Shown one piece after another: positions 1-14,588 of a DNA stretch of 14,588 nt (the stretch's first letter is position 1; each line of letters opens with the position of its first letter). Origin of the DNA: a virus. The notes under the pieces are model-generated. The model did not search any database, was not told the origin of the DNA, and saw only the letters and a list, made by a program, of their open reading frames with translations. The translations under genes and the position numbers were made by a program. The stretch lies in UHGV virus genome UHGV-1840666; one strand, given 5' to 3'.

Positions 1-65
1 ACGGTATTTCCCGCGTGGTGTATGACATCAGCGGCAAGCCACCAGCAACTATTGAGTGGGAATGA
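1..65 (+). CDS. guaA: 3-prime end of upstream host-like gene, resembling the GMP synthase (GuaA) C-terminus; partial, continues left of window
   Basis: Frame 3 translates to ...GISRVVYDISGKPPATIEWE then TGA at 63-65. The ...PPATIEWE ending matches my recollection of enterobacterial GuaA; not verified. Confidence 0.45.
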   Translation, partial: GISRVVYDISGKPPATIEWE

Positions 66-113
66 TTAATAGCTAACTCATAGCAAATCATTTCTATTCA
101 GACACTAACTCAA

Positions 114-143
114 CCTCTGTTTTTACAGAGGGTTTTTGTTTTT
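114..143 (+). terminator. Rho-independent terminator after the guaA-like gene
   Basis: Stem CCTCTG (114-119) / CAGAGG (126-131), loop TTTTTA, followed by GTTTTTGTTTTT. Confidence 0.6.
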
Positions 144-256
144 ATGTATTCATTTCTATTCACTCTACACCATATTTTTCGGCGGTACAGGTGACGGTAT
201 TACCTTAAAGGTATACTCTCATACCGTCATGAAAATGGTTTCTATACGGGTGAATT

Positions 257-1506
257 GTGCTTACCGATACAAAATTAAAAAACCTCAAGCCGCAGGACAA
301 ACTGTACAAGGTCTCCGATCGTGACGGGCTGTATGTAGCTGTGCTTACGTCAGGCACGGTCTCGTTTCGCTACGACTACCGTATCAACGGTCGCCGCGAA
401 ACGCTGGTAATCGGGCAGTATGGGCGTGACGGTATCAGCCTGGCAGAAGCGCGAGAAGAACTGATTGCTGCAAAGAAGCTGCTTAAAGCAGGCCAGTCAC
501 CGGCTGCGGCTAAACGTGACGGTATCAAAAAGATTCGTGGTGCCGAGACGTTTGCGGTACATACCGACAGTTATATGAAACACGTCATCCTGGCTGACAG
601 TACCCGCGCAATGAAACAGGCGGTGATCGACCGTGACATACTTCCGGTTCTTGGCAATAAAATGATGGCTGAAATTACCACATCGATGGTTCGTGATTTG
701 TGTGACCGGATTGTCGAACGCGGTGGCCGGGCAACAGCAGTGCAGGCCAGGGAGATCATCAGTAGCGTATACCGTCACGCCAATGACCGTGGTCATGGTT
801 TGTTTAATCCTGCGGCTGACATTAAACCTTCGTCTATCGCCATATTTAAACCAAGAGAGCGAACACTGACACCAGAAGAAATTGGCCTGTTCTTCCGCAC
901 GCTGGATGCCATTGGTGCTATGGCACTATGAAAATGGCTTTAAAGCTGGTGCTTATCACTATGGTTCGTAAAGGCGAATTCACCAACGCAACGTGGGATG
1001 AAATAGATTTTAAAAAATGGACATGGACCATTCCTTCAGACCGCATGAAGGGAAGCCGGGCGCACGTTATTTACCTGCCTAAACAGGCTCAGGATATATT
1101 GGTCGGATTGCAGATGTGCGCTGGTGGAAGTGAATATCTGGTTCCTGGTCGTTACAATTTCCGGAAGCCATTATCTAATGCCGCGCTGAACTCTCTGATC
1201 GACAGAACGGTGAAAATAATAAATGAAGATGGTGAGCATATTCAGGGCTTCACCGTACACGATATGCGCCGTACAGCCAGTACATTGTTGCATGAGGCTG
1301 GTTATCCTTCAGACTGGATTGAAAAGGCTCTGGCACATGAGCAGAAAGGTGTGCGCGCCGTATATAACAAAGCGGAATACGCCAGACAGCGCGCCTACAT
1401 GTTGCAGCAGTGGGCCGATATGATTGATTCCTGGATTGACGGGGAGCATACGGATCTGATTCCGTTCTCCCCGTCGAAGTTTGAGAAGTGGATGGCGGGG
1501 GAATAA
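257..1506 (+). CDS. int: Tyrosine recombinase, P4-type phage integrase (N-terminal DUF4102-like arm-binding region plus C-terminal catalytic domain); split into two ORFs (257-931, 928-1506) by a frameshift near 925-935
   Basis: N-terminal ORF (GTG start) has LTDTKLKNLKP...YRINGRRETLVIGQYG typical of P4-like integrases. C-terminal ORF has VLITMVRKGEF...HDMRRTASTLL...YNKAEYARQ (R/H-x-x-R and Tyr region). Combined about 415 aa. Frame change 2 to 1 is consistent with a 1-bp deletion. Confidence 0.85.
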
Positions 1507-1509
1507 CGT

Positions 1510-1704
1510 TTAATTATTCTGCTGATTTTCTTCCATCTCGGCTTCTGCTGCCAGTGATTCAATTTTATCTGTGAATATTGCTGACAGTGTTGCAAATTCA
1601 GCATCAGTGACAGCGGGAATTGGAACAAACCTGATCCCGCTGTGTGCAAGCATGTTTGCAGTTTCAAGGCATTTCCTTAAATCTGCTGGTGATGCCCTGT
1701 TCAT
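1510..1704 (-). CDS. Small acidic hypothetical protein (about 64 aa), last gene of the leftward operon
   Basis: ATG at 1704-1702 overlaps the methyltransferase stop (ATGA coupling). Product MNRASPADLRKCLETANMLAHSGIRF...EAEMEENQQNN. Taken from the C-terminal part of the 1510-1824 track ORF. Confidence 0.35.
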   Translation of the reverse strand: MNRASPADLRKCLETANMLAHSGIRFVPIPAVTDAEFATLSAIFTDKIESLAAEAEMEENQQNN

Positions 1705-2347
1705 GCTGCACGCTCCCGCCCCTGGTTGTCTGTTGGTGACAGCGGAGCATTGCTGAATGCATTTGTTAATCCGGCAATATACAACGCGTATCCAGGGTGT
1801 AGTTGCACTGCTGGGTCTTCGCACTGATTACCCCAAACATCGAAGCCATGAGACGTTTGGCGGGCGAACAGTTCAATGCGAGAAACATCGCCTAACAATT
1901 GCACAAGTTTTTCACGAACGACATCTGGTTTTCTTGAATGCTCAAGCCGCGGTGCGGTAAATGACTGAACGATACCTGCATTAATGCGCGGAGGTAGTTT
2001 TCCCTTTACCGCAAACAGGCAATCTTCACTGTTGGCGCGAGTCATGTGTCCCATCCCCATAACCAGTTTATCTGGTTGTCGACTACCACATTTTATCCAC
2101 GTGAAGCCCTTCATGGTCATCAGACGAAATCCCCAGGCTTCAACAACTTTTAGTGCTTCGAGTGGTTGTGTTGGCACCCACCACATGGCCAACAGACAGT
2201 TTTCATCGGCCAAATCCCACACAGGAAGGCGGCAGATATCCAGCACACTCATAACCGGATATTTAAAACCGGCACCGCGATTACCATCTGCGGCTTTGTC
2301 CCGGTATACCCAGGTGGATCTGCATAGATTAGCGTGTATTTTTTCAT
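1701..2347 (-). CDS. MT-A70 family (phage Dam-like) DNA N6-adenine methyltransferase; frameshifted inside the DPPW catalytic motif near 2310-2314
   Basis: N-terminus MKKYTLIYADPP (frame of ORF 2249-2473) is followed, after a -1 shift, by WVYRDKAADGNRGAGFKYPVMSVLDI... continuing into the 183-aa ORF, which ends ...FDVWGNQ. The observed CCACCTGGG would read DPPW if it were CCACCCTGG. Confidence 0.8.
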
Positions 2348-2480
2348 TGTTCTGCTCCCAGACTTCCTTTGGTAAAGGCTTGTATCAGCCTGTTTGCTGC
2401 CGCTTTCTGTGCTGCTACATTGGCAATAACTGATAGTTTTTCCTGGCTTGCTTTCGTGCAGATCCCAACCCAATTATCCA

Positions 2481-3445
2481 TTAGGAAAAAATTCTCTCTT
2501 TCTGCGAATCAGTATTTGCACATAATGTTTCAATCATTGAAATTATTTCTTTTATTGAGTGATTAACCATCATTTGCTGAACAGCATAGCCAAAAGCGTT
2601 AATCATCACTGCATGAAACTGGATATATTCTCTTTTGTATTCTGATTGCTTTGTACCATGGCGAATTGCTTCTAGTTGTGTAAGACATAACCATGATTCC
2701 CATACTGACTCGATGTTACCAATTTCTAGTTTTTTCCCATTATGAATACAAAATTTTGATGTTGAATCACTTAATGCTTTGAAACTCACCCACATGTTTG
2801 ACTTTGACGGAACAACGTTGTGCTCGAAGTCAGTGACTTCTGCAAAAGTGTCATGTTGCGACAGGAAAGACACCATTTCTTGGGCAACATCGTTTCGTCC
2901 GTCATACGCCATATTAATTGCTGCAGATGGTTTTGAAACATTATTATTAATGTCAGAAAAGAACTGCTGACGCGCTTCAAAGGAAGGTTATGCGTAAGCA
3001 TAAGAGGAATCATAATTGTTTCGCCATAATTACGGCAGAACTCAGCTAATCCTGCAGCACGATGCTGTCCATCAAATAATTTTATTTCTGCATCCATAGG
3101 AAATCTAGCTAAACCGACATTAGTATTTCCAATCTCATGGAACTCTATTTCTGAGTTACAATTTCCGACCAATGGTGGAACAATAAATGGTTCCTTTTTC
3201 TCGTAAGCGTTGACTAAATATTGATAAAACTTTTTTACCCTGGTTGGATTAATTTCACGTTGAGAACGTTCAAGGGTACTTCCCGTATTGTCGGTTGCCA
3301 ATACTCTCGATAGTGCTCTTGCTGGTACTGTCATCATAAGTATTACAGTGCTTCCCTGCGTTCCTCGTGATGCGGGAAATTCAAAGAAATAATCGCCTAC
3401 CTTGCTCATGATATTACCTTTTACATTATTGTTTTGATTATTCAT
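2481..3445 (-). CDS. DGQHR-domain protein (DndB-like, ParB/Srx-fold); two overlapping ORFs joined by a 1-bp frameshift near 2979-2981
   Basis: N-terminal ORF contains ...IKLFDGQHRAAGLAEF..., the signature DGQHR motif. The downstream frame reads through as ...FEARQQFFSDINNNVSKPSAAINMAYDGRND... to the stop at 2481. Start could be ATG 3445 or ATG 3409 (MSKVGDYFFEF). Confidence 0.7.
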
Positions 3446-3737
3446 AAACCACCCCGCAACATCCTATGCCGCTATAGTCGCCACGGCGAAGGCCGTTACC
3501 TTTTGTGATACATTGGTCCCTGCGAACCGCGATCCTTGCACGTTCAACATCACCAGAAGCAACATCCATACACTGAAGCCAAAGGTGAGCGGCAATGCGG
3601 AATTGCCCTTTTTTCTCTCTTTCAATCGCGCGTTTTTCGATCTCTATCGCCGCAGGAGTAACGGCGACAATCTTTGACGGACTGCGCATTGAAACCTTAT
3701 TCATGTGATATTTTTCAAGTCGGCTTAACTTTCTCAC
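3438..3737 (-). CDS. Hypothetical protein (about 99 aa)
   Basis: ORF with GTG start at 3737 preceded by AGAGAGGG (RBS-like). Stop overlaps the start of the DGQHR gene. No recognisable family. Confidence 0.45.
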   Translation of the reverse strand: MRKLSRLEKYHMNKVSMRSPSKIVAVTPAAIEIEKRAIEREKKGQFRIAAHLWLQCMDVASGDVERARIAVRRDQCITKGNGLRRGDYSGIGCCGVVYE

Positions 3738-3850
3738 TTAATCCAACCCTCTCTGAAAATTAATGCCAGCAGATAAAGCCATGCTGAAACAGAGGCCAGG
3801 AATAAGTACCATCCTGACCATTTGCTCCAGTGCCTTAGCAGCACACTCAT
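3734..3850 (-). CDS. Small hydrophobic peptide (38 aa), putative single-pass membrane protein
   Basis: ATG 3850-3848 to TGA 3736-3734, product MSVLLRHWSKWSGWYLFLASVSAWLYLLALIFREGWIK with a 19-residue hydrophobic core. Stop overlaps the GTG start of the downstream gene (GTGA). Weak RBS. Confidence 0.3.
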   Translation of the reverse strand: MSVLLRHWSKWSGWYLFLASVSAWLYLLALIFREGWIK

Positions 3851-3937
3851 GCAGCGTTGCTCACAGGACGATATACACGTTGCTGAACAGGAGGCTTTTT
3901 ACCCTGGAACTCTGCCGGGCTTGCTGCCTGACGTTCA

Positions 3938-4096
3938 TCAACTCCACAGCTCAACTTCGTCACGGTTCCATGCGCAGCGTTTGTCAGTGATATACCAGCG
4001 TTTAGGAAATTCACCTGCGCGCTCCATACGGTCGATAGTGCTCCATGACAGTGGCACCACCGCCAGGAGTTCCTTCTTACCTAATGCACCTTTCAT
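3938..4096 (-). CDS. AlpA/excisionase-family small DNA-binding regulator (52 aa)
   Basis: ATG 4096-4094 preceded by AGAGAGG. Product MKGALGKKELLAVVPLSWSTIDRMERAGEFPKRWYITDKRCAWNRDEVELWS matches the AlpA-family winged-HTH pattern (..LS.STI.R....G.FP......W...EV..W). Below the 60-aa track cutoff. Confidence 0.5.
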   Translation of the reverse strand: MKGALGKKELLAVVPLSWSTIDRMERAGEFPKRWYITDKRCAWNRDEVELWS

Positions 4097-4145
4097 AAAT
4101 ACCTCTCTTGGTTGCAGTGCGGCGCGCGTGGCGCCGCGGTGGTGG

Positions 4146-5063
4146 TTACATAGATGTTTCGTTTAATTCTTCCCGACGAACGCTGTAAACGTCGGTGGCT
4201 TTTGCCAGCAGTTCGTCATCATCTGAAAGTTTTTGTGCAATGTATTTGTAAGCCTTATCCAGTTCGGAGACAGTGCTGTAATTCATCGCTGCGCTGGTAA
4301 AGGCCATCAGCATTTCTTCTGGATCACGGCTATCCGCTTTACGCGTTTGCTCATCAGGCTTTTTCACTGTTTTAGCGTTGATCAGACTGTTCATGCTGGA
4401 TGCTGTGCCGTGCTTTGCCTGACTTCTTGGAGTTACGTCACGTTCAATAATGTCAGGTGAGTCGATATATTTACCTTCCATTTCCTCAGCTGTGGCTTGT
4501 TGACCAATCTCCGGCCATGCTTTACGTAATGCCTGTGCCTCTGCGCATTTTGCCAACTGCGCATAAGGCGCTTTTTCCACATGGCATTTGGTGCCGATGT
4601 GTCACGCCCCCCAGTTGCATAGTTCTCAATCCAGTATTCTTTGGCGCTAAACTCTACGATTTCCCCGCTTGCCCATTCGCTTGCTGACGGTGTACTTACA
4701 CCACTGAGGGAAGGTAACCTCCACGCCTGAAAGCGTTTGTGTTACATCTGGACCGAACTCAGGTTCATTAGCGCCTGCGTAATCGCCGGAACGGTAGGCC
4801 TGAATGCGATAAAGTCCAATGCCAGGCATGACCACGTCGCGCCATTCATTCTTTCCACTCTTCGAGTCTTTAACACTCATTGGTACCAGGTGTACCGGCT
4901 TAAGAAGAGGATCGAGTTGACGCGCCCGGCAGTAATCGACTGCCATCATTACCGATTCATCTTTTGCCCCAGGGTAAATACTGTTTTTCAGAGCGCTCCA
5001 TGTAACTTCATCGATTCCCCGAATAGCCAACACATCATTGGTGATTGCAATTTCGTTGCTCAT
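4146..5063 (-). CDS. recT: RecT-family single-strand annealing recombinase; disrupted by two homopolymer frameshifts (near 4663-4666 and 4572-4576)
   Basis: ATG 5063-5061 overlaps the exonuclease stop (ATGA). N-terminal ORF ...DYCRARQLDPLLKPVHLVPM...GIGLYRIQAYRSG; the middle segment reads in another frame (...EIVEFSAKEYWIENYATGGRDTSAPNAMWKK); C-terminal ORF (V)EKAPYAQLAKCAEAQALRKAW... Placed next to a RecE-like exonuclease. Confidence 0.8.
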
Positions 5064-6485: not shown

Positions 6486-7069
6486 TTATTGTTTGCTTCT
6501 TTCGTTCTGGCTGATGACAAATTCAATGTAACTTTCGATCTTTGCCTTCTCTGTTTCGGGTAACAATGCGTAGCGCGAGCGGTCATAGTTGATAGTCGCA
6601 GGGTCGTGCGGGTGAATCAGTAATTCATAGCCGTGACGCCCGAATGCGGATGCAACATTCTCCAGGGTGGAAATGGAAACGCTGACTTCATTGTTTAACA
6701 GGCGGCTGATTGTCACCTGGCGACGCCGGATGCGCGGTGTAGTTTTCCCTGCGTTGAAAGGTCGCGGCTTTCGCTCATCCAGCGTTCCAGGTTGTGAGCC
6801 GCCAGCTGACCAATGTCGCTTGGGCCGACAGGCTGAAACCCCTCCTGAGAAAGCGAGCGATCGATATCAAGCCAGTTACGGGGTTTATTGGCGGCAGCTT
6901 CAATTTTTCGCGCAACCTGGTCGCCGATAACCTTCTTGCCAAGAGCCCAGCGGTTTACCAGATTTGCCTGAGTTCCAAGTTTTTCTGCCATCCGCGTCTG
7001 AACACCATTGAATTCACGGTCGATCAAGTCGTTGAGATTTTGCCTGCGGACGTCCTGGATACTTTTCAT
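6486..7069 (-). CDS. Phage immunity repressor with two tandem XRE-type HTH domains and no S24 peptidase domain; split by a 1-bp frameshift near 6714-6720
   Basis: N-terminal ORF ...GVQTRMAEKLGTQANLVNRWALGKKVIGDQVARKIEAAANKPRNWLD (HTH 1). After the shift the sequence reads ...LSTQGKLHRASGVAR-VTISRLLNNEVSVSISTLENVASAFG... (HTH 2). Sits between the two operator clusters, divergent from the Cro-like gene. Confidence 0.8.
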
Positions 7070-7124
7070 TTTCTGGAAAATCGCCTCATATATGAATCAG
7101 TAGATGATTCAATTTAAAGCAATA

Positions 7125-7187
7125 TTACCCAACAGGTAAATGCACCTCATAGGTAACTATCCTTGATTTTTGTTACCTTATGGGTGA
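7125..7187. promoter_or_regulatory. Tripartite operator region (OR-like) between the repressor and cro-like genes
   Basis: TTACCcaacaGGTAA (7125-7139), GCACCtcataGGTAA (7142-7156, imperfect), TTACCttatgGGTGA (7173-7187, imperfect); candidate -35 TTGATT at 7163-7168. Confidence 0.5.
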
Positions 7188-7223
7188 ATATTTATTATCT
7201 GAAATAAATATCAGGCAATAGCT

Positions 7224-7454
7224 ATGAGCGATAACGGACATTTCGATTTCAAAAAGCACTGGCTTGCACTTACTCCGGATGAGCGTGAAGCCTTCGCACA
7301 GGAAGCCGGAACGACGAGTCACTATATCCAGACTCACTTAACAGGTAAGCGCAAAATGCCAGGTAAAGTATTGATGAATGGGCTTTTTAAAGCCTGTAAA
7401 ACAAGACAATGGCTGCGCTCAAAAGCAGAACTGGCATACTTCTTCTACTCATGA
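7224..7454 (+). CDS. Cro/YdaS-like small HTH regulator (76 aa)
   Basis: First rightward gene after the operator region; ...TPDEREAFAQEAGTTSHYIQTHLTGKRKMPGKVLMNG... is HTH-like; followed by a terminator. Confidence 0.6.
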   Translation: MSDNGHFDFKKHWLALTPDEREAFAQEAGTTSHYIQTHLTGKRKMPGKVLMNGLFKACKTRQWLRSKAELAYFFYS

Positions 7455-10326: not shown

Positions 10327-10817
10327 GCGAAATTAATTACCAGGCATTGCGTGAGGCGGCAGAGAAAGCAACGTGGGGAGACTGGGACTCATATAAACCA
10401 CACCGTGGCGCACGTGGTTATGAGGTCCGACTAAGTAGTCAGGCCATTGCGCAACACGTTCTGAAAAACAACGCTGAATTTATTGCTGCCTTTAATCCAA
10501 AGGTTGCTTTGGCACTACTGGATGAACGGGAAAAAAACCAGCAATACATCAAACTCCGCGACCAGGAGAACGAGGATATTGCGCTAACGGTAGGGAAGCT
10601 GCGCGTTGAGCTTGAAGCAGAAAAACAGATGGCAAAGGTTCTATTTATGGAAAATGCTCGGCTTAAGTCAGGCATAGCCGGTCTGATACACCTCGGTATT
10701 CGATATGCAGATGTTGAGGTCATGAAAATTGCTGGAGATGCCCAGCTTTCTACTCCATGCACTGACAGCATCATAAACAGCATTGCAACAGGCATTCGCA
10801 TCAACGGAGGTGAGTAG
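10323..10817 (+). CDS. Ea22-like protein (lambda Ea22 family)
   Basis: MSEINYQALREAAEKA... and ...LLDEREKNQQYIKLRDQENEDIALTVGKLRVELEAEK... resemble lambda Ea22 as recalled; GTG start overlapping the upstream stop. Confidence 0.7.
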   Translation: MSEINYQALREAAEKATWGDWDSYKPHRGARGYEVRLSSQAIAQHVLKNNAEFIAAFNPKVALALLDEREKNQQYIKLRDQENEDIALTVGKLRVELEAEKQMAKVLFMENARLKSGIAGLIHLGIRYADVEVMKIAGDAQLSTPCTDSIINSIATGIRINGGE

Positions 10818-10993
10818 TGCGTGTGGCATGTATCGGCTTGTTACCGTACCCGACTCGTTTTTGGGCTTCTGCGCTAATTGCAAAGCCACATGTCCTGATG
10901 GCTGACAACATCATCCCGGCACCAAAGCGCCGCCATACCGGTATTGCAGCGGCACGACGAGCAGCAAAGAGACGCAGGAGAGCAAAGCGATGA
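10817..10993 (+). CDS. Possible small protein with Arg-rich C-terminus (58 aa)
   Basis: GTG 10817 overlapping the Ea22-like stop; ...HTGIAAARRAAKRRRRAKR; stop overlaps the next ATG. Could instead be a frameshifted extension of the Ea22-like gene. Confidence 0.25.
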   Translation: MRVACIGLLPYPTRFWASALIAKPHVLMADNIIPAPKRRHTGIAAARRAAKRRRRAKR

Positions 10994-11167
10994 AAAACCG
11001 TAAGGCAAAACGACTTTTTTTTACAGCGACCTGTGCGTGTGGTGGAGCTGGTTATTAGCAACCATAAGATAGCGGTACTCCATCCATTTGGTCAGGTGGC
11101 TTTTGCCGCAAAGCGTAAGCCTACTGCGTCACAGAACAGGCGGAAGAAAGGGTACGCTGTAAGATGA
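10990..11167 (+). CDS. Small basic hypothetical protein, paralog A (MKNRKAK...); frameshifted in a T8 run (11015-11022)
   Basis: ATG 10990. Read with T7 instead of T8 the ORF gives MKNRKAKRLFLQRPVRVVELVISNHKIAVLHPFGQVAFAAKRKPTASQNRRKKGYAVR, ending ATGA-overlapped with paralog B and resembling it at both ends. Confidence 0.3.
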
Positions 11168-11352
11168 AAAACCGTAAAGCAAAGATTCTGTTAGTTCGTA
11201 GAAACGCTCCTGGCGTCTGGCAGTGGGTGAGACTCAGCAACCGACGGATGGGGTTGATGAAATATTACGGGATGATGGATTGTGGTTTTTGCAAAAAGCC
11301 CAGCGCGGCGCAAAACCGCTGGAAAAACCACTTGCGCACTAAAGGAGAGTGA
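11164..11352 (+). CDS. Small basic hypothetical protein, paralog B (62 aa)
   Basis: Track ORF MKNRKAKILLVRRNAPGVWQWVRLSNRRMGLMKYYGMMDCGFCKKPSAAQNRWKNHLRTKGE; the first 20 nt nearly repeat the start of paralog A. Confidence 0.4.
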   Translation: MKNRKAKILLVRRNAPGVWQWVRLSNRRMGLMKYYGMMDCGFCKKPSAAQNRWKNHLRTKGE

Positions 11353-11353
11353 T

Positions 11354-11867
11354 ATGGCGTTAACACACCGCGAACTCTGTCAGATTGCGTATAAGTTCCT
11401 TAAGCGCAACGGGTTCAAGGTTTGTTTCATGACCGCTTTATAGCTGTAACCAGTACCGGAGAACAGCCAGATGCTATGGGATTCAGAAATTCAGCATCAT
11501 GCCTGATAGAGGCGAAGTGTTCTCGTGCTGACTTGTTGGCAGATAGAAAAAAGCGTTTTCGTAAAAATCCATCTCTTGGAATGGGCGACTGGCGATTCTT
11601 TATTAGTGAGCGGGAATTATTTCAGTTGAGGATTTACCACCTGGCTGGGGATTACTTCACGTTGTTAACGGAAGAGTACGGAAAGTACATGGGTGGCCCA
11701 AGGGTAATTGCTGTTGGGGTAATCCTGACGATAAGCCATTTACTGGAAATAAGCAGGTTGAATGCGATTACATGTTATCTGCATTAAGGCGCATGGAGTT
11801 GAGAGGGCACCTTAATGAAATATATGACGGTGTAATTGTTAATAAGAAAGAAGGAAACGCGGCATGA
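11354..11867 (+). CDS. PD-(D/E)XK-fold nuclease-like protein (Hjc/MmcB/VRR-NUC-like); two frameshifts (near 11425-11440 and 11600-11620)
   Basis: ATG 11354 with AAGGAG RBS. MALTHRELCQIAYKFLKRNGFKVCF...IAVTSTGEQPDAMGFRNSASCLIEAKCSRADL shows E...PD...E-x-K spacing. The frame returns to ...NPDDKPFTGNKQVECDYMLSALRRMELRGHLNEIYDGVIVNKKEGNAA with the stop overlapping the next ATG. Confidence 0.5.
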
Positions 11868-12642
11868 TCACTATTACCAATAAGAAACAGTATCCCAGCG
11901 AGCAATATCTTAATGAGCTGATCACCAACATAGAGTTTGCTGCAAGGGCACCAGTTGAAGTCGTGAGAGCAATGGCAGCAGAGCTACAGAAGCGGCGCGA
12001 AGCTGATAGCGCAGAACCAGTTGCTTATATTTTCAAACATCCGGCCGGGAAATTATTCTGGGCTTTAACGGATGAAAGTAATAAAGAGCAAGCGGACGTT
12101 ATTCCTGTTTATGCCGCCCCTCCAGTGCCAGTAGTACCTGAAGAAAAACCAATGCCTAACCCTCTTAAAATGTACGCGGTCGATGCTGTTGCCGCTATTG
12201 CAGAGGTGAGAGGCTGGAACGCTGCCGCGCCGCCATGCTTCAGGCCGAACCTGTAAGTAATAGTGATGAGTTACCGCTGGACTATCTGCAAGGACACAAA
12301 GACGGCCTGGAGTGGGCTGCACAATTGGCAGAAGCCAATCATCCGCAAACAGGTGACTGGTTGTACGACGACCCAATCGATCTTGCCAGGGCGATTCGCA
12401 AAGGTCCTGATATGCCTACTGTTCAGGCTGGCAACTATCCGGTAACTCCGGATGGTTGGATAAGCTGTAGTGAGCGAATGCCCGCTCAAGATGATTGGAT
12501 TTTAATTTATTCAAAGCACGGCGAGTATATGGCAGGACAGGTACAAGGGGAATACGTGGAGTTGAGCGACGGCACTTTATCGTGGTTAGGGAACGCCTTG
12601 TACTGGATGCCTCTACCGGAACCGCCGCAGGAGGTTAATTGA
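11864..12642 (+). CDS. DUF551-domain phage protein; frameshift near 12215-12235
   Basis: C-terminal part ...DGWISCSERMPAQDDWILIYSKHGEYMAGQVQGEYVELSDGTLSWLGNALYWMPLPEPP is a typical DUF551 signature; the N-terminal ORF from ATG 11864 (AAGGAA RBS) runs into it after a -1 shift. Confidence 0.65.
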
Positions 12643-12926
12643 TGGTCTCCTTCGCGAAATATACGATTATTGACTGGATAGCATTCATTCAGGTTTTGCT
12701 CATCTGGTTTTATATGGCTTACAGGAGTGGACAGTGGATTGTCAGTGTAGCCTGTAGCAATGGATGGCGTTGGTGGAACCGAAAGAATAAAAAAGCGCTG
12801 GCCTTGGCTTCGTTTTACGAAGCATTCAATCTTAACAGTCTTCAGCCTGGTTCTGTCGTTGTAGTCACCACTCAAAGCGGCATGACGATACAAATTCACA
12901 AGCCAAAGGAGGAAGGTCGTGGCTAA
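12642..12926 (+). CDS. Hypothetical protein with N-terminal transmembrane helix (94 aa)
   Basis: ATG 12642 overlapping the upstream stop (TGATG), AGGAGG RBS 9 nt upstream; hydrophobic segment IIDWIAFIQVLLIWFYMAY. Confidence 0.45.
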   Translation: MVSFAKYTIIDWIAFIQVLLIWFYMAYRSGQWIVSVACSNGWRWWNRKNKKALALASFYEAFNLNSLQPGSVVVVTTQSGMTIQIHKPKEEGRG

Positions 12927-13203
12927 CCTGCAACTTGCCGTTAAAGGTGAATACTTCGATGCCATGATTCGCGGAGAGAAAACGGAAGAGTATCGCCTGT
13001 GTAATGACTACTGGAATAAGCGAATTATGTTCCGCGAGTATGACCGCCTGATTATCACAAAGGGATATCCGAAGCGCGACGATTCCAGCCGCAGAATTGA
13101 CGTCCCGTATGACGGATATGAAATCAAGACAATCACACATCCGCACTTCGGCGATAAACCGGTAAAGGTGTTCGCGATAAAGGTGAATATCAGCAATGAA
13201 TAA
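12919..13203 (+). CDS. ASCH-domain-like protein (94 aa)
   Basis: GTG 12919 with GGAGGAAGG RBS; ...AVKGEYFDAMIRGEKTEEYR...YDRLIITKGY...KVFAIKV fits the ASCH/PUA-like pattern. Confidence 0.5.
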   Translation: MANLQLAVKGEYFDAMIRGEKTEEYRLCNDYWNKRIMFREYDRLIITKGYPKRDDSSRRIDVPYDGYEIKTITHPHFGDKPVKVFAIKVNISNE

Positions 13204-13237
13204 CAATCCTCGCACTCGCGGGGATTTCTTTTATCTG

Positions 13238-13262
13238 AACTCGCTACGGCGAGTTTTGTTTT
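13238..13262 (+). terminator. Rho-independent terminator after the ASCH-like gene
   Basis: AACTCGC (13238-13244) / GCGAGTT (13249-13255) stem, TACG loop, then TTTTGTTTT. Confidence 0.5.
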
Positions 13263-13275
13263 ATGGAGATGATAA

Positions 13276-13443
13276 ATGCACTTCCGGGTGACAGGTGAAT
13301 GGAATGGAGAACCATTCAACAGAGTTATCGAAGCGGAGAACATCAACGACTGCTATGACCACTGGATGCTGTGGGCGCAGATAGCGCATGCAGACGTAAC
13401 CAATATTCGAATTGAAGAACTGAAAGAACACCATGCCGCCTGA
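13276..13443 (+). CDS. Small hypothetical protein (55 aa), possibly the lambda orf55 equivalent
   Basis: ATG 13276 with GGAG RBS; MHFRVTGEWNGEPFNRVIEAENINDCYDHWMLWAQIAHADVTNIRIEELKEHHAA. Below the track cutoff; the orf55 link is from memory of lambda gene order only. Confidence 0.4.
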   Translation: MHFRVTGEWNGEPFNRVIEAENINDCYDHWMLWAQIAHADVTNIRIEELKEHHAA

Positions 13444-13456
13444 TGGCGGTTTTTTA
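13435..13456 (+). terminator. Rho-independent terminator overlapping the stop of the 55-aa ORF
   Basis: GCCGCC (13435-13440) / GGCGGT (13445-13450) stem, TGAT loop, then a T-run (13450-13455). Confidence 0.5.
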
Positions 13457-13469
13457 TTGGAGACAAGAA

Positions 13470-13814
13470 ATGTCAGATTTGGCTATGAAGGTTTTGAAAT
13501 GGCAATCGACTGGCGATGTCGGCATCAGTAGCGCAACTCTTGCCTCAATCGCATGTGGACTGAAAAAGAATATCTATGGTCATAGCTTCGGTGCTCCACA
13601 TGACGCAGCCGATTTCCGGCGATGCGTTGCACTTGTTGAGCAGATTCCAGAAATCAGAGATTCATTCGACAAGGTTGCAAAGCTCGTTCCGGCATTCAAA
13701 GGCATCCTCAACGAATGGGATTCCCTCGTTGCTCTGTTGAAGTCTGAAATGAAGATACACGGAAACAAAGCACCAGAGACTTACAGAAGAATTAGCGAAC
13801 TACGCAAGGACTAA
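13470..13814 (+). CDS. Hypothetical protein (114 aa) upstream of xis
   Basis: ATG 13470 with GGAG 7 nt upstream (the track start at 13443 lies inside the terminator loop); MSDLAMKVLKWQSTGDVGISSATLASIACGLKK... Confidence 0.5.
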   Translation: MSDLAMKVLKWQSTGDVGISSATLASIACGLKKNIYGHSFGAPHDAADFRRCVALVEQIPEIRDSFDKVAKLVPAFKGILNEWDSLVALLKSEMKIHGNKAPETYRRISELRKD

Positions 13815-13929
13815 CCATGGAATCACACAGCCTCAAACCCAATGAGGCCTGTTCATTTCTCAAGATATCCAGACCTACCATTGCCGCATCAATGCGGCTT
13901 TTCTTGCGTGTAATTGCGGAGACTTTGCG

Positions 13930-14148
13930 ATGTACTTGACACTTCAGGAGTGGAACGCACGCCAGCGACGCCCAAGAAGCCTTGAAACAGTTCGTCGATG
14001 GATACGCGAGTGCAGGATATTCCCTCCTCCGGTTAAGGATGGAAGAGAGTATCTGTTCCACGAATCAGCGGTAAAGGTTGACTTAAATCGACCAGTAACA
14101 GGTAGCCTTTTGAAGAGGATCAGAAATGGGAAGAAGGCGAAGTCATGA
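13930..14148 (+). CDS. xis: Excisionase Xis (lambda type)
   Basis: 72-aa product MYLTLQEWNARQRRPRSLETVRRWIRECRIFPPPVKDGREYLFHESAVKVDLNRPVTG.LLKRIRNGKKAKS is near-identical to lambda Xis as recalled; overlaps the int start. Confidence 0.9.
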   Translation: MYLTLQEWNARQRRPRSLETVRRWIRECRIFPPPVKDGREYLFHESAVKVDLNRPVTGSLLKRIRNGKKAKS

Positions 14149-14588
14149 GCGCCGGGATTTACCCCCTAATCTTTATATAAGAAACAATGGATATTACTGC
14201 TATAGGGACCCAAGGACGGGTAAAGAGTTTGGATTAGGCCGAGACAGGAGGATAGCAATCACTGAAGCAATACAGGCCAACATTGAGTTATTTTCAGGAC
14301 ACAAACACAAGCCTCTGACAGCGAGAATCAACAGTGATAATTCTGTTACGTTACATTCATGGCTTGATCGCTACGAAAAAATCCTCGCCAACAGAGGAAT
14401 CAAGCAGAAGACACTCATAAATTACATGAGCAAAATTAAAGCAATAAGGAGGGGTCTGCCTGATGCTCCACTTGAAGACATCACCACAAAAGAAATTGCG
14501 GCAATGCTCAATGGATACATAGACGAGGGCAAGGCGGCGTCAGCAAGTTAATCAGATCAACACTGAGCGATGCATTCCGAGGGAGGCA
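14126..14588 (+). CDS. int: Lambda-type integrase Int, N-terminal part (continues beyond window); 1-bp frameshift near 14545-14548
   Basis: MGRRRSHERRDLPPNLYIRNNGYYCYRDPRTGKEFGLGRDRRIAITEAIQANIELFSGHKHKPLTARINSD... matches the lambda Int N-terminus as recalled. The ORF stops at ...GKAASAS while the +1 frame continues KLIRSTLSDAF..., which is the known lambda continuation. Confidence 0.9.

Follow-up and report, generated by a model that had tools for sequence, protein, structure and literature searches.

DndB (TIGR03233, PF14072), which sits with dndCDE, couples an N-terminal ParB/Srx-fold domain carrying the motifs DGQHR and QxFxDxN to a helical C-terminal domain, and DpdB, of the dpd 7-deazaguanine system, is likewise a DGQHR-family ATPase that has a DNA-modifying enzyme as its partner. 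Fusions of a ParB-fold domain to a methyltransferase are common in phages, and the ParB fold of a DndB-like protein serves to bind ATP and GTP (PMC12704722). ParB-terminase-methylase loci were described earlier in phages (PMC4738411), and these systems, together with the plasmid enzyme M.EcoGIX (PMC7736820), likewise link a ParB/Srx nucleoside triphosphate (NTP)-binding module to several methyltransferase families, with a proposed role of the fusion systems in anti-restriction or DNA marking on mobile elements. Here, we describe a locus in the virus genome UHGV-1840666, a stretch of 14,588 nucleotides (nt) that we refer to as the window, in which a gene for a DGQHR/DndB-family protein is followed on the minus strand by a gene for an MT-A70 family N6-adenine methyltransferase. 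Judged by the distribution of both genes, this pairing is recurrent but facultative, obligate in neither direction, and built from independently moving cassettes. Our preferred reading, though an evenly balanced proposition, is that the two are independent, early-expressed cargo genes sharing an anti-defence hotspot. The pair consists of the following features:

2344 to 3409, minus strand: DGQHR/DndB-family gene, encoding a ParB/Srx-fold NTPase domain and a helical C-terminal domain; the intact product has 355 amino acids (WP_001312000.1).
Near 2509 and near 2975, minus strand: 1-nt deletions that break the DGQHR gene in the window, located by alignment to the intact reference.
3050 to 3076, minus strand: codons for FDGQHRAAG, the DGQHR signature motif, read directly from the sequence.
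2345 to 3429, minus strand: inserted cassette, 1,087 bp in the intact reference, delimited by junction mapping against phage phiV10 and by the composition profile.
1701 to 2347, minus strand: MT-A70 family N6-adenine methyltransferase gene; the intact product has 215 amino acids (WP_023145212.1), with DPPW and ELFAR motifs.
Near 2313, minus strand: 1-nt deletion that breaks the methyltransferase gene in the window, within the DPPW motif, located by alignment to the intact reference.

A first-pass annotation of the window had placed a DGQHR gene beside a methyltransferase gene at the distal end of the early-left operon, and this is indeed the arrangement: both lie on the minus strand where the leftward early operon approaches the integrase, with a 4-bp overlap between the stop codon of DGQHR and the start codon of the methyltransferase gene (ATGA, 2344-2347). 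The motif FDGQHRAAG had been read correctly and placed some 30 nt off, at about 3080-3110 rather than 3050-3076. The corrected protein, given there as 320 amino acids, has 355 (2344-3409) after two frameshift corrections near 2509 and 2975. Throughout, the intact reference for the window is NZ_CP126926, which is 99.9% identical to it and from which the intact DGQHR protein was taken. In a near-identical E. coli genome the two products are annotated as 'DGQHR domain-containing protein' (WP_001312000.1, 355 amino acids) and 'MT-A70 family methyltransferase' (WP_023145212.1, 215 amino acids).

By its profile matches, the phage protein is a genuine member of the DGQHR/DndB family, and the assignment made from the motif is borne out by hidden Markov model searches: the intact protein reached 192.6 bits against the DGQHR profile TIGR03187 (cutoff 58.85; profile positions 1-276 of 276) and 158.4 bits against Pfam DndB PF14072 (cutoff 29.1), with DndB models aligned across nearly its whole length. 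Both family motifs, DGQHR and the downstream QxFxDxN, are present, and in an alignment of 55 homologues residues D113, G114, Q115, R117, Q149, F150, F151, D153 and N155 are invariant, while H116 is at least 90% conserved. The N-terminal domain qualifies as a ParB/Srx fold, R117 corresponding to the phosphate-binding arginine of ParB Box II. ParB_N PF02195 gave no match to the protein, the sole ParB-type match being phrog_1033 (E = 0.0017). PADLOC recognised it merely as DndB-like, and PHROGs assigned it to phrog_7901, a family of unknown function.

The protein shares its domain family and length with DndB, aligning over residues 8-321, whereas the genetic setting differs, as the phage or plasmid DGQHR gene belongs to an early operon, has no promoter of its own and has no dnd genes near it. 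A true DndB is excluded by the equivalog model TIGR03233, against which the intact protein scored 110.1 bits, well under the cutoff of 328, and by the lack of annotated dnd neighbours; a true DpdB is excluded by the lack of dpd neighbours annotated in the region. Across 26 kb of the intact reference no dndC, dndD, dndE or dndFGH is annotated near the gene, whose neighbours are PerC, MT-A70, DUF1382 and the integrase, and the region has no annotated DpdA/TGT-like gene or any further dpd gene, in agreement with the first-pass annotation, which had set the gene outside any dnd or dpd cluster. Likewise, no TGT-family match occurred among the best 25 of 41 Pfam families from scanned proteins downstream of DGQHR genes. 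The locus also differs from the DpdB system in that the partner here would be an S-adenosylmethionine-dependent methyltransferase. Elsewhere in the family, one member of 697 amino acids is a PAPS-reductase/DndB fusion, and in Pseudoalteromonas phage KB12-38 (locus 1-4553) genes annotated 'PAPS reductase' and 'sulfate reductase' flank a distant DndB-like gene, with a C5 methylase nearby; this association hints at sulfur-related DNA modification in some phages.

Its junctions and composition mark the DGQHR gene as a separately acquired, self-contained, low-GC cassette of ~1.1 kb in a variable slot. Homology to phiV10 breaks exactly at the PerC stop and methyltransferase start, with ~10 bp of junction sequence in common, and the cassette holds the DGQHR gene plus 28 bp upstream of it and nothing else. 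It is absent from phiV10, in which, as in most relatives, the methyltransferase gene directly adjoins PerC; in phiV10 PerC overlaps the methyltransferase start directly. Because the flanks are 98.3-98.7% identical to phiV10, and the methyltransferase is ~98% identical with or without DGQHR, the insertion has left the methyltransferase essentially unaltered. In the composition profile GC content falls to 36-39% across the DGQHR gene only, against ~46-50% in the flanking genes. Among 539 complete E. coli genomes matching the region, 21 have the DGQHR form, and the remaining 518 lack DGQHR but have the methyltransferase. Since neither a promoter of its own nor a coding-strand terminator was detected around it, the DGQHR gene is most likely co-transcribed with the leftward early operon: across window positions 1300-4300 no sigma-70-like promoter was found on either strand, compared to a mean of 5.4 expected from shuffled sequence. 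Zero promoter matches in 3 kb also fits a promoter-poor part of a long early operon.

To see how general the pairing is, we surveyed 125 loci with a DGQHR homologue, drawn from bacterial contigs (one genome per species), viral contigs and phage records, in which methyltransferases were located by iterative searches seeded with neighbours and their families confirmed in Pfam. A methyltransferase occupied the downstream position in 32 of 65 distinct contexts when DGQHR proteins were clustered at 98% identity and in 19 of 46 at 90%, the paired genes lying on the same strand and either overlapping, at most ~75 nt apart or separated by a single small helix-turn-helix gene. The same DGQHR-then-MT-A70 pair with a 4-bp overlap is found in Salmonella phages SPN1S, SPN9TCW and SPC32H, and within a single 90%-identity DGQHR cluster the downstream enzyme may be MT-A70, PF05869 Dam or N6_N4 plus C5. 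The co-occurrence that the first-pass annotation had raised thus recurs, with five methyltransferase families and in the three Salmonella phages, but an obligate link does not stand, given the 518 of 539 genomes without DGQHR and a further 284 with DGQHR and without a methyltransferase. In the latter (284 of 5,426 E. coli genomes) a defective DLP12-like prophage contains a DGQHR gene of 73% identity, with the gene order kil-gam-bet-exo-DUF1317-DGQHR-TraR-DUF4222-intD, and no methyltransferase is annotated anywhere in that prophage. The same prophage (locus L128, 8922-12833) also contains a 3.9-kb inverse autotransporter gene and an alpha/beta hydrolase gene between its replication and packaging genes.

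The control set comprised 68 viral loci whose exo gene is near-identical and whose downstream sequence is long enough; behind DUF1317, 6 of them carry only DGQHR, 8 carry only a PF05869 Dam, and the other 54 have neither. Across related phages the slot contains DGQHR alone, a methyltransferase alone, both, or neither, and it is from these contents, in the survey and in the exo control loci, that we describe it as open to each gene, to both together or to neither. In lambdoid prophages that share the exo and DUF1317 genes (e.g., L152, L130 and L138, ~6672-7390), that position is taken up by DGQHR alone, by PF05869 Dam plus a gene of 104 amino acids, or by nothing, and in Klebsiella phages a dATP/dGTP pyrophosphohydrolase gene directly follows DGQHR. 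A Pfam scan of 62 proteins downstream in loci classed as having no methyltransferase revealed none among the best 25 of 41 matching families, which comprised integrases, dATP/dGTP pyrophosphohydrolase, antirestriction proteins, PsiA, ParA/ParB and SSB. Often, a small gene of 154 or 179 amino acids stands between DGQHR and the methyltransferase (loci L060-L084; L082:6065-6526, L068:6046-6582); in the 179-amino-acid form helix-turn-helix segments are repeated, and its matches to sigma-70 region 4 and GcrA are weak and below threshold, and the 154-amino-acid form has no Pfam match.

The methyltransferase had been described as both MT-A70 and Dam-like. The former is upheld by a full-length match of the intact enzyme to Pfam MT-A70 PF05063 (78.9 bits, cutoff 23.9, positions 1-172 of 172), whereas the Dam families PF05869 and PF02086 gave no match, MT-A70 being alone among Pfam families and NCBIfam returning nothing, which leaves a Dam-like (GATC) specificity putative. 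The intact enzyme has the motif YADPPW, broken in the window by the deletion near 2313, and was recognised by PADLOC as MTase_II (254 bits) and by PHROGs as phrog_359, DNA methyltransferase. It is a single-domain MT-A70 enzyme of a very large prophage family with more than 1,159 related protein clusters, of which those among the matches listed are mostly single-domain and about 190-220 amino acids long. Orphan small MT-A70 methyltransferases of phages (phiV10 gp33, SPN1S_0032) are like it in size and motifs, with 98% DNA identity to the phiV10 gene, and show no difference of substance. A relation to M.EcoGII, a beta-class enzyme of 349 amino acids with a DPPY motif (PMC5778455), was rejected, as M.EcoGII differs in size, class and motif and is closer to the N6_N4 neighbours found at other loci.

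The window derives from a phiV10/epsilon15-like prophage of E. coli integrated beside guaA, its backbone being that of phage phiV10 (Uetakevirus, a relative of epsilon15); several E. coli chromosomes match the stretch at 99.9% identity, such as that of the avian pathogenic E. coli (APEC) strain E19035, where the prophage is annotated beside guaA. On the minus strand of window positions 1500-3800, genes are transcribed in the order PerC, DGQHR, MT-A70 methyltransferase and DUF1382, heading toward a convergent tyrosine integrase. The neighbours of the pair are:

3438 to 3689, minus strand: PerC-family small regulator gene (PF06069, 30.5 bits), directly upstream of the cassette.
1510 to 1704, minus strand: DUF1382 small gene (PF07131, 105.7 bits), overlapping the methyltransferase stop by 4 bp and the last gene ahead of the integrase.
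257 to 1506, plus strand: P4-type tyrosine integrase, convergent with the leftward operon and split by a 1-nt deletion near 922.

Over the 10.3 kb that align to NZ_CP126926, the window contains 12 single-base indels (10 deletions and 2 insertions, at 114, 922, 2313, 2509, 2975, 3942, 4567, 4672, 6719, 8153, 9106 and 9525) and only 5 substitutions, most indels sitting in short G/C runs, and the genes split by them include the integrase, the methyltransferase (near 2313), DGQHR (near 2509 and 2975), bet and others. Because indels outnumber substitutions, fall mostly in G/C runs and affect genes that are intact in near-identical genomes, these breaks are probably sequencing or assembly errors rather than gene decay; the reading of the DGQHR and methyltransferase genes as true pseudogenes was rejected on the excess of indels (12 versus 5 substitutions) against those intact genomes. 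Past ~10.3 kb, window positions 10328-14588 are no longer collinear with the closest reference and match it in patches only, at 87-97% identity (ead/Ea22, DUF551 and ASCH region), as mosaic late-early cargo.

In the mechanism we propose for two independent cargo genes, both accessory genes would share one variable slot where the leftward early operon ends near the integrase. Once the prophage is induced or a cell infected, the methyltransferase would methylate adenines of replicating phage DNA, the classic escape of orphan methylases from restriction. The DGQHR protein, as a predicted ParB/Srx-fold NTP (ATP/GTP) switch with an intact arginine motif, would bind DNA and perform a separate early job that aids establishment of the incoming or replicating mobile element; candidates for this job include shielding DNA from host nucleases, interfering with those nucleases, or re-programming DNA transactions. 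Adjacency would then be due to the gathering of anti-defence genes in one hotspot and not to mutual need. The independence of the two genes is argued by the precise cassette junction, the drop in GC content, the 21 of 539 distribution and the occurrence of DGQHR without methyltransferase in 284 genomes. The proposal is further favoured by the varied contents of the slot behind exo and DUF1317, the differing methyltransferases that follow DGQHR proteins of one 90%-identity cluster, the antirestriction, ssb and psiA genes near plasmid homologues, the probable transcription with the early operon, the ATP and GTP binding of a DndB-like protein (PMC12704722) and the action of HerB/YfjB on host DNA (PMC13370423). 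From its context, an anti-restriction role for the pair, as the first-pass annotation had suggested, is plausible.

Several lines of evidence weigh against this proposal. DpdB is a DGQHR-family ATPase that is needed by the DNA-modifying DpdA. Among 58 survey loci with a methyltransferase match, 56 have it directly downstream or one small gene away, and five Pfam methyltransferase families are paired with DGQHR in this way (MT-A70, PF05869 phage Dam, D12 Dam, N6_N4, often then followed by C5, and C5), across Enterobacterales, Vibrio and Rheinheimera (three bacterial orders), with DGQHR identity of 30-38% in the more distant ones. A methyltransferase was present in 19 of 46 DGQHR contexts compared to 8 of 62 exo-int regions without DGQHR, a ~3-fold enrichment that rests on small, non-independent samples, the control being from E. 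coli only and not dereplicated. A random hotspot would not obviously produce this much co-location, which is consistent with a functional link. In addition, ParB-methyltransferase fusions are frequent in phages (PMC12704722), and anti-defence activity of the DGQHR protein family is hypothetical.

These observations bear most directly on a tentative alternative, which we hold to be possible though rather doubtful, namely that the locus encodes a split ParB-plus-methyltransferase module in which the DGQHR NTPase, once loaded on DNA, brings in the adjacent methyltransferase, activates it or renders it processive, as a two-gene equivalent of the phage ParB-methyltransferase fusions and of DpdB helping DpdA. 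The same gene order, strand and close spacing with MT-A70, PF05869 Dam, D12 Dam, N6_N4 and C5 enzymes in enterobacterial, Vibrio and Rheinheimera loci, at DGQHR identities of 30-100%, would be in keeping with such a module, as would the roughly 3-fold higher methyltransferase rate over the exo-int control and the fusions and ParB-terminase-methylase loci already described in phages (PMC12704722, PMC4738411). Yet either gene commonly occurs alone, the two differ in GC content, the methyltransferase, ~98% identical with or without DGQHR, gives no sign of adaptation to a partner, and unrelated methyltransferase folds adjoin DGQHR proteins of one 90%-identity cluster. No DGQHR-methyltransferase fusion was present in the 10 long family members checked, where the only fusion was to a PAPS-reductase domain. 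The locus further differs from the described ParB-methyltransferase systems in having separate genes, a protein of the DndB/DGQHR clade rather than PF02195, a position beside the integrase rather than the terminase, and a facultative link.

It is improbable, in our estimation, that the DGQHR protein is instead a prophage defence or exclusion factor that attacks or blocks unmarked foreign DNA while the methyltransferase or host Dam protects self, in the manner of a restriction-modification system. ParB/Srx-fold proteins do serve as NTP-regulated nickases or DNases in DndI, SspE, GmrS and Osa (PMC11662687, PMC5512222), the succession of the two genes is reminiscent of a restriction-then-modification cassette, and DGQHR is intact in the defective prophage of 284 E. 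coli genomes. However, since no promoter of its own was detected, DGQHR is probably silent in the lysogen; it occurs without a methyltransferase, and beside methyltransferases of differing specificity classes; and because the DGQHR gene is at least 99% identical in all 284 genomes, its retention there may be clonal. Least probable of all is that the protein is a DndB-like transcriptional regulator whose ATP-modulated operator binding tunes the downstream methyltransferase or a host dnd operon, for although DndB represses dndBCDE in an ATP-modulated manner (PMC4507180; Xia et al. 2019, as cited in PMC11662687) and DndB models match nearly the full DGQHR length, just 28 bp lie upstream, without promoter or operator space, the methyltransferase start overlaps the DGQHR stop, phages without DGQHR express the methyltransferase from the same operon, and the DndB equivalog score is 110 against a cutoff of 328 bits. 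Both defence or exclusion and DndB-like regulation fit the anatomy of the locus less well than either two independent cargo genes or a split module. As to whether adenine methylation defeats Dnd defence, Dam methylation is reported not to interfere with it (PMC10470545).

Relatives of the DGQHR protein extend to plasmids: homologues of ~43% identity (427-460 amino acids) were found on 1,055 plasmid records, for the most part of Klebsiella, Enterobacter and Escherichia, and 878 of these records are conjugative plasmids. The homologue of the IncL/M plasmid pNDM-HK (6989-8272) has JAB-domain, DUF4942, Hha, antirestriction and ssb genes around it, many plasmids of 63.6 kb have a homologue split by IS1, and in several enterobacterial genomes psiA and antirestriction genes follow the DGQHR gene. 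DUF4942 has no sequence relative in PDB, and inspection by eye showed no evident methyltransferase motif in it. Anti-defence genes and orphan methyltransferases are known to cluster in the leading regions of plasmids (PMC11541004), and HerB/YfjB of F plasmids, a ParB-like leading-region protein with an NTP switch, is encoded in the part of the element that is expressed first, acts on host DNA right after plasmid entry and aids establishment (PMC13370423). The plasmid DGQHR homologues resemble HerB/YfjB in occupying comparable regions, beside antirestriction, ssb and psiA genes, but HerB/YfjB is a canonical CTP-binding ParB of 652 amino acids with helix-turn-helix and extra domains, and no sequence relationship between it and the DGQHR clade was detected. 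We would only hesitantly propose that phage and plasmid DGQHR proteins form a distinct class of early-expressed NTP-switch DNA-binding proteins that protect the DNA of incoming mobile elements, either by potentiating an adjacent methyltransferase or through anti-defence activity alone.

No paper characterising the DGQHR-methyltransferase pairing was found, as the first-pass annotation had also reported, and the literature yielded no functional study of the phage or plasmid DGQHR clade. The pairing has nevertheless long been present and annotated in public phage genomes, and linkage of ParB-fold proteins to methyltransferases is an established theme (PMC12704722, PMC4738411). The pair itself is ordinary, as RefSeq annotates both genes and published Salmonella phages have them in the same layout, and its interest rests mainly on the size of the DGQHR clade and its distribution over mobile elements. 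This DndB-like ParB-fold NTPase family occupies an early accessory slot of many temperate enterobacterial phages and appears on more than 1,000 plasmid records, mostly conjugative, reaching clinically important conjugative IncL/M plasmids, among them the 63.6-kb plasmids whose copy is disrupted by IS1. If the DGQHR protein were an anti-defence factor or a methyltransferase helper, this would be a new activity for the ParB/Srx fold and would be relevant to the ways in which phages and resistance plasmids evade restriction.

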